Positions 785 through 50,858 of a stretch of DNA of 51,127 bases are shown piece after piece. This stretch comes from Patescibacteria group bacterium (GTDB lineage Bacteria > Patescibacteriota > Minisyncoccia > UBA6257 > GWB1-50-10). A program made the position numbers and the translations under genes. The notes beneath the pieces are model-generated. The model ran no database searches and was not told the DNA's origin. It saw nothing but the letters and a program-made list of their open reading frames with translations. Location of the stretch: positions 1-51,127 of the forward strand of contig JBFLWN010000001.1 of assembly GCA_040757555.1 (NCBI GenBank), given 5' to 3'. Every line of letters begins with the position of its first letter. Position 1 is the first letter of the stretch.

Positions 785-1955
785 GGTATGAATGTGTTAT
801 TTCATTGTATGCCTCAATAAATCGTCTCGCAACTGATTCCGCAGAAAAATTGTTGTACACAAATTCTTTCCCACGTTGACCTATCTTCTCCGCTTTGTCT
901 TTATTTTCCAGTAAATCAACCACCACGTCTGCGAGAAGCTTTATATCTTTTTCAATCACAATTCCTGCTCCCGCATTTTGTATCTCTTCCGATATTGCCA
1001 CTCCCTTTGTGATAACCACCGGAAGTCCCACGGCCATTGCCTCAATTGTAGCCATACTAAAACTCTCCGAAAACGATGGGAGTACAAAGACATTACTTTC
1101 ATGGAGTACAGCTTTCTTCTCTTCTCCCGAGATAAGTCCAGTGAAAATAACTTTCTTATTAATCTTGAGATTTGAGATTTGAGATTTAATTTTTGCTATG
1201 TATCCTGCCTCATCCGGACCAGCAATGACTAGCATGGCATTTGATCTTTTTTTCAAAACGTCCGCGAACGCAGGAATGAGCGTATCAAATCCCTTTACCC
1301 AGTTTAGTCTCCCAACAAATAATACTATCTCCGAGTCCTCTTTGATTCCCCATTTATTACGGAATAAATTATTTTCCACTGGATCGAGATTTTCGCTTTC
1401 AAAGGGATTTGGAATAACTAACGCCCCTTTGAATGGAAGCTTCGTTTCTATATAATCACGCTTCTCGGCTTCACTCGTAAAATGAATCGTCGATGCATTT
1501 TTTAATACAAATTTTTCAATAAAATGCGTATATATTATTTTCTTCAAGGACTTACTTCCATACGTCTGTTTCATAAAATTTCCCCGAGGAGAAACAATGA
1601 ACGGTTTCTTATGTTTTTTTGCATAATACGCGCCAAGCAACGATGCGGAAAGAAATACTGAAGTAATATGGATAAGATCAAAATTCTGAATGTTTTTCTT
1701 TAATGCATAAAGCATTGCACTTGAGTATTCCCATGCACGAAATGTAAGGGGAAAATAAAATACTTTTACTCCATCAATATTAATCTCTTTATTCAAGGAA
1801 ACATCTAATTTTTTATCCCCATCTATATTCGTTGTGTACACCGTGACATCGATACCAAGCCTCACTAACCATTTATTCAAGATGTGCACGCTCACCACAG
1901 GGCCCCCATGACTATAGGCGGGAATATAACTTGGAGTAATGTGAAGAATTTTCAT
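777..1955 (-). CDS. glycosyltransferase family 4 (GT-B)
   Basis: MKILHI..GG start, FVGRL..VKG, PSFSESFSMATIEAMAVGLPVV. Confidence 0.9.
   Translation of the reverse strand: MKILHITPSYIPAYSHGGPVVSVHILNKWLVRLGIDVTVYTTNIDGDKKLDVSLNKEINIDGVKVFYFPLTFRAWEYSSAMLYALKKNIQNFDLIHITSVFLSASLLGAYYAKKHKKPFIVSPRGNFMKQTYGSKSLKKIIYTHFIEKFVLKNASTIHFTSEAEKRDYIETKLPFKGALVIPNPFESENLDPVENNLFRNKWGIKEDSEIVLFVGRLNWVKGFDTLIPAFADVLKKRSNAMLVIAGPDEAGYIAKIKSQISNLKINKKVIFTGLISGEEKKAVLHESNVFVLPSFSESFSMATIEAMAVGLPVVITKGVAISEEIQNAGAGIVIEKDIKLLADVVVDLLENKDKAEKIGQRGKEFVYNNFSAESVARRFIEAYNEITHSYHV
1167..1187 (-). repeat. (AAATCTC)3 heptamer array inside the GT4 gene, encoding KSQISNLK
   Basis: GAGATTT at 1167, 1174 and 1181 on +; same unit as the repeats flanking the four-helix-bundle gene. 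Confidence 0.85.
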
Positions 1956-24697: not shown

Positions 24698-25282
24698 CTA
24701 TGGCTGCGAAAGAAATGCGCGAATTTCAGTGTCATCCGGCCAGAGAGAAAGAATAGTTTCTGCCACCTCCCTTGCTTTTATAATCTCTCCCTTTTCTTTG
24801 TACAGATTCAAAAGTTCATAGAGCACAGGGGGAAGCTTTGGACCAATGGTGCGAGCGGCAACATAATACCCTTCCGCTCTTTGATAGTCTTCTTCTTTGT
24901 TAAATCGCCTCCATAATACAAAATGCATTTGCCCCCCCGCAAGAAGATGACGAACATTATTTTTAAACAGGAGTGGTTCCGCATAATCCACAAGCGCACG
25001 AGTTACTTCTTCCGATTGATTTTGTTTTACTATAATATTCATAATATCGTTCGACAAAAATTTCGTTACTTCTTCTTCGCCAATTGGAGAATATAGTTTG
25101 ACCGCTTTATCGTACGCATTGAAATAATCACCAAGCGACTGCACCTTTCCCCCACTTACTGTTTTTAACGCATCAATATATGCCTGCGCTTTTGCCCAGG
25201 GTGCATAAGCGCCAAAATAAATTCCAATAACGGAAAGAATTATTAATACAATGATAAGAAGTTGTTTTACAAAAATATTCAT
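24698..25282 (-). CDS. membrane-anchored TPR-like protein
   Basis: N-terminal TM, then helical A..Y..A....P and L..LY...G....A patterns. Confidence 0.6.
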   Translation of the reverse strand: MNIFVKQLLIIVLIILSVIGIYFGAYAPWAKAQAYIDALKTVSGGKVQSLGDYFNAYDKAVKLYSPIGEEEVTKFLSNDIMNIIVKQNQSEEVTRALVDYAEPLLFKNNVRHLLAGGQMHFVLWRRFNKEEDYQRAEGYYVAARTIGPKLPPVLYELLNLYKEKGEIIKAREVAETILSLWPDDTEIRAFLSQP

Positions 25283-25297
25283 AGAGATAATTTAAAG

Positions 25298-25756
25298 GTA
25301 AAATCTCAAATCTCAAAAATGAAATTCAAAATTTAAATCTTATTTTTATTTTTCATTGTTATAATACTTGCGGCTAATATTTTAGATATTTCTTCGGTTT
25401 CTTTTAAAATATCATTGCTTTCTTTTTCGTTTAATTTCTTACTATCTCTCAAATAACAAATCCATAATTTTGATTCATTGGCTGATTTTAATGCGTAATG
25501 ATAAAAATTGATATAGTCTTTTTTAGAACTCGCAGATTTTGCCTCAATCACGTTTGCACTCACTGAGGTGCCACTTCTTAATAATTGTTTTCCAATAACA
25601 TCCGACGTTCTGTCTTTTGGGAGCCTCTCTATCATCTGTATAATTTTTAATCCATATAAATAAATCCTCCTATATAATTCGTTTTTGTATTCATTACCTG
25701 TCATATATTTTTTATTTTTTAACTGTACTTTTGAGATTTGAGATTTGAGATTTTAC
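25298..25756. mobile_element. four-helix-bundle cassette bounded by a perfect 20-bp inverted repeat
   Basis: GTAAAATCTCAAATCTCAAA (25298-25317) and TTTGAGATTTGAGATTTTAC (25737-25756). Confidence 0.55.
25333..25704 (-). CDS. four helix bundle protein (23S rRNA IVP / bAvd-like family)
   Basis: QLLRSGTSVSANVIEA..S.KDY..F...ALKSANES..W family signature; 123 aa, Lys-rich. Confidence 0.9.
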   Translation of the reverse strand: MTGNEYKNELYRRIYLYGLKIIQMIERLPKDRTSDVIGKQLLRSGTSVSANVIEAKSASSKKDYINFYHYALKSANESKLWICYLRDSKKLNEKESNDILKETEEISKILAASIITMKNKNKI

Positions 25757-27154
25757 ATCAGTAAGCCGATATGTCGCAAGTGCGAAAAACACAAATAAAT
25801 TAAGGTAAATAATAGAGACATCAAAAAGAACAAGACCTTGAACGAGATATGACAATGGAAGGGCAAAAAGAAGGGCATCTTCCATCACAAAAGAACCGTC
25901 TCGCACTTCTTGTTTTTTTTCTTTTACTAAATCTTTTTGTGATGGAGAATTTCCAATTTCGAATTTCGAATTTCCAATTTTATTTTTAAATAAGCCGGAT
26001 TTTTTGAAAATAAGAACAAAAAAAGTAATAAAAATACCAAAATAACTTAAGAAACCAAGGATGCCGGTTTCAGCGAGATAATCAAAATAAATACTATGTG
26101 CCCTATCGAACCACGCGCCAAATTGCTGACCGGGAACGAAATATTTTGTGTTGAAATTTGTATCGAAAATCTGGAGATAATTTTCAGGACCCCATCCCAA
26201 AAGTGGTCGCTCTTTAAATCCATCCCACGCGATTTTCCACATGATAGTACGATGTTCAAACGTTTGTGCACGTACCGAAAGATCAAAAAGACGTGATCCG
26301 GGAAGATCTTTCGCAAGCGGAGAATTGCTTACTCCTATTATTCCCCCAAAAAGAACAATAAGAACCACGGTTGCAATAATAAACTTTTTTCGCCATTTTT
26401 TACTCGTAAATCCGACATATCCAAGAAATCCTATGAGCGAAATAGCAAGTCCAACAAATCCTCCACGTGTCGCAGCGGCAAAAAATACCACAAGAAAAAT
26501 GAGAAATAATACTCCCATGAATATCCCCCCTGCGGATTTAATTTTTGCGCTATATTTTTTTATGAAAAGATATGCGACATAAAACATGAGAAAAATTGCA
26601 TATGTTGCAACATATGCAGGATTTCCTATTGATCCCTGAAATCGAAATCCAGGGCCAAATTGTGCACCTATAAAATTATTCACTCCCGAGGCAGCAAGAA
26701 GTCCATATAAAGACATGAGAAGTCCCCCTGCAATTCCCCATTGAAATAAACGAAACCAATCTTTTTCTTCTTTGAAAAGTGTTACGAGTAACACAAAATA
26801 AATGTAGAAACAAAGCATTTGTAACCCCCCCTCTCCCCGCTCAAAATTGGACCAAAAAGAATTTAGCGGATCAATACCAAAAAATCCTGCAAGAAGAAAT
26901 ATAAGAACAAAGATACTTACCGCAATCGTGAGGGGGCGTCGAAATATTTCGATTAACCTTTTCCACATAACCTCCACATGATCCTCAAACAGAAGTCCGA
27001 TAAGAAAGAAAATCAGTGCCAAAAACACTAAACTTCGAAACCATACATATTTTCCCACAATAAACGGAAAAAGCGTTGATGTGGTTACTAGAACCACTCC
27101 TATCATAGGAAGAAGGAGAAGAAATTTTGATGTCTTAAAAAATGAAAAATTCAT
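25712..27154 (-). CDS. O-antigen ligase / O-oligosaccharyltransferase family (Wzy_C)
   Basis: GSIGNP, TRGG, R..MW..AW..FKERPLLGWGPENY, DRAHS...YLAETGILG. Confidence 0.9.
   Translation of the reverse strand: MNFSFFKTSKFLLLLPMIGVVLVTTSTLFPFIVGKYVWFRSLVFLALIFFLIGLLFEDHVEVMWKRLIEIFRRPLTIAVSIFVLIFLLAGFFGIDPLNSFWSNFERGEGGLQMLCFYIYFVLLVTLFKEEKDWFRLFQWGIAGGLLMSLYGLLAASGVNNFIGAQFGPGFRFQGSIGNPAYVATYAIFLMFYVAYLFIKKYSAKIKSAGGIFMGVLFLIFLVVFFAAATRGGFVGLAISLIGFLGYVGFTSKKWRKKFIIATVVLIVLFGGIIGVSNSPLAKDLPGSRLFDLSVRAQTFEHRTIMWKIAWDGFKERPLLGWGPENYLQIFDTNFNTKYFVPGQQFGAWFDRAHSIYFDYLAETGILGFLSYFGIFITFFVLIFKKSGLFKNKIGNSKFEIGNSPSQKDLVKEKKQEVRDGSFVMEDALLFALPLSYLVQGLVLFDVSIIYLNLFVFFALATYRLTDVKSQISNLKSTVKK
25947..25981 (-). 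repeat. 5 x period-7 GAAATT(C/G) array inside the O-antigen ligase gene
   Basis: AATTT(C/T) at 25948, 25955, 25962, 25969, 25976; encodes KIGNSKFEIGNS. Confidence 0.8.
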
Positions 27155-50689: not shown

Positions 50690-50858
50690 GTGCCGCTAGG
50701 AACACAAAGCTCCCAGCCAGCGATCCTTGCGGACCCATACAGGTTTCCCCATATGACGGTTCAACGTGCTCTGACTAGGAGCTTAATACGTTGAACCGTT
50801 TTCTAAACCATGCCGATTACTCGGTTTAGGTCCTGCCTAATGGCTATTTAGTTGTGCT
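50690..50858 (-). ncRNA. candidate highly structured RNA (5' leader of 50362..50673 or independent ncRNA)
   Basis: three GNRA-capped hairpins, a 12-bp stem, a 14-bp long-range helix and a closing stem; G-U pairs favour the minus strand; TATAAT at 50867-50862. Confidence 0.7.

Follow-up and report, generated by a model that had tools for sequence, protein, structure and literature searches.

In Coxiella burnetii the 23S rRNA gene carries at helix 45 an intervening sequence (IVS) which, according to the published description, encloses a PF05635-type open reading frame (ORF) and is closed by a 28-bp terminal stem. The 5′ arm of this stem contains three tandem heptamers, their number depending on the strain, and RNase III cuts at the first of them; the same description recalls older ideas of IVSs as remnants of transposition or as mobile elements. 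A study of the candidate phyla radiation (CPR) reports this ORF in 16S and 23S insertions, together with many short ORF-less insertions at known IVS sites. Relatives of the protein whose structures are solved form pentamers, and a paper on diversity-generating retroelements (DGRs) notes a resemblance of PF05635 to Avd. The origin and spread of rRNA IVSs and the role of the encoded protein have been questions since the 1990s, and papers still call the protein uncharacterised. Here we analyze a 51,127-nt stretch of DNA from a Patescibacteria group bacterium (GenBank assembly GCA_040757555.1, contig JBFLWN010000001.1; hereafter the window), in which a 123-aa PF05635 gene lies between two protein genes and is flanked by inverted arrays of the heptamer AAATCTC. 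The same layout was found around PF05635 genes in many phyla, which points to a widespread and little-described selfish element made of a gene and its own repeat.

Two further repeat systems are relevant for comparison. In repetitive extragenic palindrome (REP/REPIN) systems with their REP-associated tyrosine transposases (RAYTs), one gene is flanked by inverted copies of a short repeat that is also scattered through the genome, partly as hairpin doublets between the genes of operons; the repeat type is genome- and clade-specific, and RAYT is a tyrosine HUH transposase. Heterocystous cyanobacteria carry short tandemly repeated repetitive (STRR) heptamers in intergenic DNA.

Bracketing the PF05635 gene is a perfect inverted repeat of 20 nt: GTAAAATCTCAAATCTCAAA occupies 25298-25317, and the sequence of 25737-25756 is its exact reverse complement. 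An earlier note on this DNA had described a perfect AAATCTC-built repeat around a 123-aa four-helix-bundle gene, and both its coordinates and its sequence were confirmed. Two full AAATCTC units are present in the left arm and three in the right arm (25730-25753). When mismatches are allowed, the pairing of the arms reaches 40-44 nt at 77-78%. Perfect 20-nt inverted repeats within 700 nt were found at about six places in the 873-kb genome and at none in 10 block-shuffled genomes, and the two-unit 14-mer gave 5 matches in the window compared to 0.21 expected. By complementarity of its flanks the gene ranked 5th of 839 ORFs of the genome, with a score of 40 (median 17, 95th percentile 23, 99th percentile 32.6). 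The inverted-repeat observation is thus confirmed. The note had also suggested that the arms could pair in the mRNA and loop out the gene, and in the minimum-energy fold of the read-through transcript the two arms were indeed paired (20/20 over the perfect part); the 521-nt fold as a whole was not unusual (z −1.52).

The 123-aa protein matched PF05635 with an E-value of 1.1e-21 (77.4 bits, cut-off 33.8) and TIGR02436 with an E-value of 4.2e-24 (84.9 bits, cut-off 24). Its sequence was similar to that of PDB 2rld_A (E 6.7e-16), the 2rld entry containing five chains. In a PF05635 alignment of 20 sequences, residues Q40, N51, E54 and E77 were invariant, and R43 and S47 were conserved in at least 90%; the polar motif described earlier for the family, with R, S, N and E spaced along helix 2, is present. 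Judged by its sequence, the gene is a member of PF05635. This family was the sole profile match of the ORF, and no nuclease, recombinase, transposase or Y1 HUH domain was matched.

Homologues were collected from the source genome (873 kb in 32 contigs, 38% G+C) and 40 related genomes; the family was present in 29 of these 41. ORFs in the relatives were called with a profile built from the first set of matches, loci L016, L066, L072 and L109 were excluded for short flanks, and L070 was left out because it coincides with L009. The source genome contains three PF05635 genes, all with inverted periodic arms (scores 40, 35 and 27, compared to the genome median of 17 and 95th percentile of 23). The other two copies, both on contig C4, are an intact gene between recR and dnaB (score 27) and an internally deleted copy (score 35). 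Their arms are imperfect inverted periodic arrays of a unit other than AAATCTC, and the ORF and part of the arms are common to both copies at two different sites. In the relatives, the median flank score was 30 among 58 distinct genes and 17 among the 88 genes that neighbour them at these loci, and 38 of the 58 scored above the 95th percentile of the neighbours (40/58 with a slightly different control set). When flanks were shuffled, the median fell to 16 and the 99th percentile was 26. The best self-match lag in 105-nt flanks was 7 in 70.3 of 116 flanks and 8 in 17.6 of 116, while the lags of control flanks were flat (7 in 17.5/122, 8 in 8.8/122). The units themselves vary between cassettes, TTAGTAG, GATGTTA, ATTTACA and TTAACGGG being examples.

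The layout is not restricted to close relatives. One search with a single protein yielded 80 loci in named genomes spanning Patescibacteria, Saccharibacteria, Acidobacteriota, Bacteroidota, Planctomycetota, Verrucomicrobiota, Campylobacterota, Eubacteriales and others. The median score of 78 genes from this set was 31, compared to 16 for 177 neighbour genes, with 36/78 above the 95th percentile; the non-CPR subset (41 genes) had a median of 34. A search of plasmid proteins returned 30 records, mostly cyanobacterial. All eight cyanobacterial plasmid loci examined had heptamer arrays on both sides of the gene, and in seven of the eight the arrays were inverted (scores 40-63).

Two side observations were made during this survey. 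At L033 2500-2545 (genome G003) two small G+C-rich hairpins interrupt the upstream arm of the cassette, and the arms of L048 terminate in a similar hairpin; such hairpins may be nested mini-insertions. The top scorers of the genome-wide flank test in the source genome were two paralogous proteins of about 200 aa (C4:5616-6218 and C11:1831-2424), each flanked on both sides by similar palindromic hairpins of 32-36 nt.

A tree of 126 proteins was built (ORFs shorter than 95 aa or with stops were left out) and compared with the repeat units. The unit is 7 nt long, or 8 nt in one clade; it differs between cassettes, yet it follows the protein clade. The clade of the window has A-rich units containing C. 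The octamer clade comprises 7 cassettes with period 8 in 11/11 scored arms. The large clade comprises 85 cassettes from many phyla with 77 distinct units, and an AG core was present in 87 of its 94 arms, whereas letter-shuffled units reached 59.7 on average and 67 at most. In the sense strand the upstream arm is richer in G than in C (0.26 vs 0.12) and the downstream arm is the mirror image of this; the clade of the window shows the opposite polarity. Since neutral flanks would lose their likeness at 45-60% protein identity, the AG core must be under some constraint.

These data bear on the idea that the arms have no function and are slippage-prone quasi-palindromes, lengthened by tandem duplication and held similar to each other through template switching between them, around a gene with a tendency to land in hairpins. 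The number of units does vary, as this idea would have it: two against three at the present locus, 16 at the plasmid locus L167, and between Coxiella strains. Neutral slippage, however, would not be expected to tie a period of 7 or 8 nt to the protein clade, nor to preserve an AG core in different phyla at 45-60% protein identity, and nothing similar was seen at neighbour genes. We consider functionless arms improbable.

Scattered copies of the cognate unit occur away from the cassette too. In the source genome, two AAATCTC units in a row are matched exactly at five more places: inside two ORFs, in one intergenic spacer, in an ORF-less hairpin (C4:25083-25137) and in an insertion of the 23S rRNA gene. 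As the array within a 392-aa ORF of the window (Table 1) and the tail of the ligase gene show, short arrays of the unit can sit in frame within coding DNA. The 23S rRNA gene of this genome (C9:25883-28537; L040 5884-8538) has two insertions relative to the Rfam model. The first is about 93 nt long and lies near model position 583; the second, 152 nt near position 690, contains AAATCTC twice and folds into one long hairpin (z −7.97, reached by 0/200 shuffles). Patterns from cassettes of three other genomes were each searched in five genomes. The octamer pair of G032 had 41 matches in G032 and 0 in the four other genomes, the G008 pattern had 9 matches in G008 and 0 elsewhere, and the AT-rich pattern of G002 had 16 in G002 compared to 0-6 elsewhere and 5 for the reversed-pattern control. 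The G032 matches are parts of a composite element of about 200 nt found at many contig ends, and G032 has about 20 scattered arrays; one G032 cassette adjoins the 5′ end of a 16S rRNA gene. On two Nostoc plasmids the cassette unit likewise recurs elsewhere, ORF-less hairpins included.

Other periodic sequences were seen in passing. Arrays with period 7 and related A/T-rich units are frequent in the source genome; a run of five AAAATTC units at C3:74025-74061, for example, codes for the N-terminus (MIQNSKFKIQNSK) of a pilin-like protein with an FTLIEL motif. A second period-7 array of the window, at 25947-25985 (units AATTTCG and AATTTCC), lies inside the ligase ORF and encodes ...KIGNSKFEIGNS...; when the ligase was aligned with that of G007, the stretch 25955-25974 was located in a variable loop and did not have the look of a clean insertion. 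In G032, positions 360-851 of L154 (contig C6) are a long intergenic run of many different period-7/8 arrays with a G+C-rich hairpin, GAGATTT x3 included, which looks like a set of nested or decayed hairpin elements. Contig C29 of the source genome (1285 nt) contains a truncated ORF, an 8-nt tandem array and a 37-nt inverted repeat whose arms are separated by about 465 nt. The ORF looks like an IS200/RAYT-type tyrosine transposase, and ORFs of contigs C20 and C29 are tentatively called IS630-like and RAYT-like; C29 may be contamination. The only Rfam match in the window is a LOOT RNA (RF03000) at 50722-50832 of the minus strand (78.2 bits, gathering score 46.4).

Table 1. Position and content of the repeat arms, the enclosed gene and associated features of the window; the arms are named in the sense of the enclosed gene.
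Feature	Position	Strand	Details
Upstream arm	25730..25756	-	Three AAATCTC units and a GTAAAA lead; perfect 20 nt = 25737-25756; imperfect extension to 25710
Four-helix-bundle / '23S rRNA IVS protein' gene, 123 aa, in the loop between the arms	25333..25704	-	PF05635, TIGR02436
Downstream arm	25294..25337	-	Two units; perfect 20 nt = 25298-25317
Wzy_C (O-antigen ligase family) gene	25712..27154	-	Conserved as far as ...ATYRL
TPR gene, directly downstream of the cassette	24698..25282	-	In G007, start 4 nt past the ligase stop (empty site)
Solo array, three AAATCTC units, inside a 392-aa ORF (777-1955)	1165..1187	-	Encodes KSQISNLK, as in the ligase tail

The cassette sits in an envelope operon, and all genes here (the Wzy_C ligase gene, the PF05635 gene, the TPR gene and a PMT_2 ORF) are on the minus strand. 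The upstream arm, which the note had placed inside the last codons of the ligase, lies within the last 15 codons of this ORF and codes for its final residues, the tail ...TDVKSQISNLKSTVKK. The 15-residue C-terminal tail of the ligase is thus arm-coded, and it is unlike the tails of the G003 and G007 ligases. Between the stop codon of the small gene and the perfect part of the downstream arm there are 15 nt, and a further 15 nt separate this part from the TPR start.

Another possible role of the arms is that of expression signals through which the insertion does no harm: promoter parts serving the cassette and the gene behind it, stop codons in all frames, or repeated motifs resembling ribosome-binding sites that the opposite arm masks. 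Each arm does overlap promoter-like hexamers of the minus strand (25779-25750 and 25316-25289), stop codons in all three frames are present in 26 of the 67 upstream arrays that measure 21 nt or more, and many units of the large clade are purine-rich. The promoter scan, however, barely exceeded shuffles (15 vs 8.9, sd 2.9), AAATCTC units contain no stop codon so that the ligase frame runs through them, and 15/67 arrays close no frame; the inverted symmetry and the scattered ORF-less copies are left unexplained as well. All-frame stop codons were rejected as a general reason for the heptamers, being found in 26/67 arrays only, and the promoter/terminator scan gave a weak signal. Altogether, we regard expression signals as very unlikely to account for the arms.

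The state of the insertion sites was compared between relatives. At the ligase-TPR junction, G007 is empty: 4 nt separate the ligase stop from the TPR start and no arrays are present. The same junction of G003 is occupied by a cassette of another clade, with other heptamers and a protein 21% identical to that of the window. The ligase tails of the source genome, G003 and G007 diverge after ...ATYRL in step with the state of the site. At the dnaB-recR junction G004 is empty, with stop and start overlapping, G002 and G003 contain ORF-less heptamer-array hairpins of differing units, and the source genome contains a full cassette. The arms and the ORF thus act as one unit of inheritance and insertion. 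Both neighbours were on the strand of the cassette in 95 of the 112 cassettes counted and both were on the opposite strand in one, the remainder being mixed (this count leaves out 15 cassettes in which a neighbour was over 400 nt distant). On plasmids the cassettes were found between cas6 and cas4 (as in Anabaena sp. 90), between nrdB and nrdA and in conjugation operons (as in the tra operon of Nostoc sp. C052); the position of such genes in cas loci has been noted previously and agrees with these contexts.

The earlier note had proposed a self-contained cassette of a small protein and its own repeat, and three kinds of evidence by which this could be checked are now at hand. Inverted period-7 flanks are far commoner in homologues than in neighbour genes, the unit and even its period follow the protein clade, and empty sites exist at both the ligase-TPR and the dnaB-recR junctions of relatives; all three support the proposal. 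The two alternatives offered for the cassette, a mobile unit or an RNA-level module, are not exclusive, and either may apply.

The best reading of these data, which we hold with moderate confidence, is that of a selfish hairpin cassette of the IVS type that is looped out, and probably cut, in read-through RNA and whose protein is likely to act on its own repeats. Such a cassette would have no promoter of importance of its own and would be transcribed by read-through from the host operon. In the read-through RNA the arms would pair as a duplex of at least 20 bp with the ORF looped out, as suggested by homology with rRNA IVSs, and by the same homology RNase III would cut the arm duplex, as it does in rRNA IVSs; an RNase III gene is present in the source genome. 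We propose that the insertion would be tolerated because of this cut. The protein may recognise its own repeat unit and help to keep or spread the hairpins, as RAYT does with REP. An action of the protein on its own repeats is suggested by the fact that both unit and period are clade-specific and that cognate copies are scattered.

Several observations weigh against this reading. Twenty of the 58 homologues in relatives and 42 of the 78 in named genomes did not pass the 95th percentile of the controls, and p-values are overstated since the related genomes are not independent. The Pseudanabaena plasmid locus L167 (about 1501-1860), where the gene lies between cas6 and cas4, has arrays in direct instead of inverted orientation, one with about 16 heptamers and the other with about 10. 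The agreement between unit and clade could be plain linkage, which explains part of it. Neither a catalytic nor a nucleic-acid-binding activity is known for the PF05635 protein, which in Coxiella is seemingly not made. No target-site duplication was evident at empty-versus-filled junctions in comparisons made at the family level. Finally, among arm mismatches of 92 cassettes, counted on the sense strand, there were 68 G.U and 81 A.C (p 0.33), which is no wobble bias. Selection for a stem in the sense RNA is thus not demonstrated, and a process at the level of DNA could keep the arms alike. Since the arrays can pair in several registers, the wobble test neither supports nor excludes RNA pairing. 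The same lack of bias would also fit functionless arms.

A DNA-level element would account for part of these observations. The arrays would then be subterminal binding sites in single- or double-stranded DNA, the protein would join the ends for excision or insertion, or repress its own gene, and the RNA stem would be a by-product. Besides the lack of wobble bias on the sense strand, the clade-specific unit and period with the conserved AG core, the scattering of cognate units in the same genome only and the independent occupation of the same junction several times are in line with such an element. Transposons usually have short motifs arrayed in inverted order at their two ends, and one Gram-positive plasmid is known to have a small repressor with heptad arrays as its binding sites. 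A protein of 123 aa without a nuclease or recombinase domain and the lack of a visible target duplication argue against it, however. So does co-orientation with both neighbours in 95/112 cassettes compared to opposite orientation in 1/112, which is unexpected for a cut-and-paste DNA element, and so does the processing of the homologous rRNA IVSs as RNA. We therefore consider a DNA-level element unlikely, and the looped-out hairpin cassette remains our preferred reading.

The resemblance of PF05635 to Avd raises the question whether the gene encodes an Avd accessory protein that works with the reverse transcriptase (RT) of a DGR. The source genome does have one RT. The note had stated that the window contains none, and in agreement with this the only PF00078 match of the genome is on another contig, C9, between a DUF3800 gene and an SNase gene. 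Moreover, 16 of the 29 related PF05635-bearing genomes have no RT match, including G008, with 6 PF05635 matches, and G032; the Avd-like genes that do adjoin RTs, in G004 and G005, are weak PF05635 matches. A role as a DGR accessory protein is largely refuted by these data and is scarcely credible. The RT itself, a protein of 355 aa encoded at C9:17848-18915 (L150 4849-5916) and flanked by DUF3800 and SNase-homologue genes, does not look like that of a DGR, because no direct repeats of at least 40 nt were found around it (L150:2500-8001). It could be of the defence type.

The literature search, which covered main texts and a minority of the subscription papers, found heptamer arms described for the Coxiella IVS only. 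It found no paper that ties PF05635 genes outside rRNA to flanking arrays or treats such cassettes as a class, and no link between cyanobacterial heptamer repeats and any protein family. As far as this search reaches, the flanking arrays have not been described as a general rule. The rule is a checkable one: in many phyla, and mostly outside rRNA, the gene is accompanied by a short unit of its own in inverted arrays, and this unit recurs elsewhere in the genome. It explains the presence of such genes inside cas, conjugation and envelope operons and offers a lead on the cyanobacterial heptamer repeats. Culturable hosts such as Nostoc, Anabaena and Chryseobacterium carry such cassettes. There are practical effects as well, the arrays breaking assemblies, as in G032, and arm-coded tails being added to host proteins.

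Comparison with described systems places the cassette closest to the rRNA IVSs of Coxiella burnetii and of Leptospira as cited in the Coxiella work. According to that work, the same protein family lies in the loop of a long stem formed by terminal inverted repeats, the arm heptamers vary in copy number, short ORF-less versions exist and the distribution suggests horizontal spread. The hairpin insertion in the 23S gene of the source genome itself contains the unit of the cassette. The link to rRNA IVSs drawn in the earlier note is thus apt, given the heptamer repeats in the arm of the Coxiella IVS and its RNase III-cut stem. In contrast to rRNA IVSs, the copy of the window lies between two protein genes, as do most surveyed copies; and the general rule of inverted clade-specific 7-/8-nt arrays in many phyla, with scattered cognates, is not in the literature found. 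We file the cassette as an IVS-type element outside rRNA.

DGR Avd is a homologous small helical protein, but the cassette has no adjacent RT and no template or variable repeats, and most cassette-bearing genomes have no RT match. Tandem heptamers resembling STRR sequences flank the PF05635 gene at 8/8 plasmid loci and their units recur elsewhere on the plasmid. The PF05635 gene shares with REP/RAYT systems its flanking inverted repeats, copies of which are also dispersed through the genome that carries it. In contrast to RAYT, the PF05635 protein belongs to a four-helix-bundle family with no known catalytic motif and is not a Y1 HUH transposase, and the repeat is a tandem array of a 7-8-nt unit and not a palindrome of 20-40 nt. 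We tentatively put forward the wider and rather doubtful possibility that PF05635 proteins are the trans-acting partners of a new class of mobile hairpin elements, built of inverted 7-8-nt cognate arrays, that colonise operons and rRNA genes widely among bacteria. The rRNA IVSs, the IVS protein and the cyanobacterial heptamers would then be parts of one REP/RAYT-like system with an unrelated, non-HUH protein.
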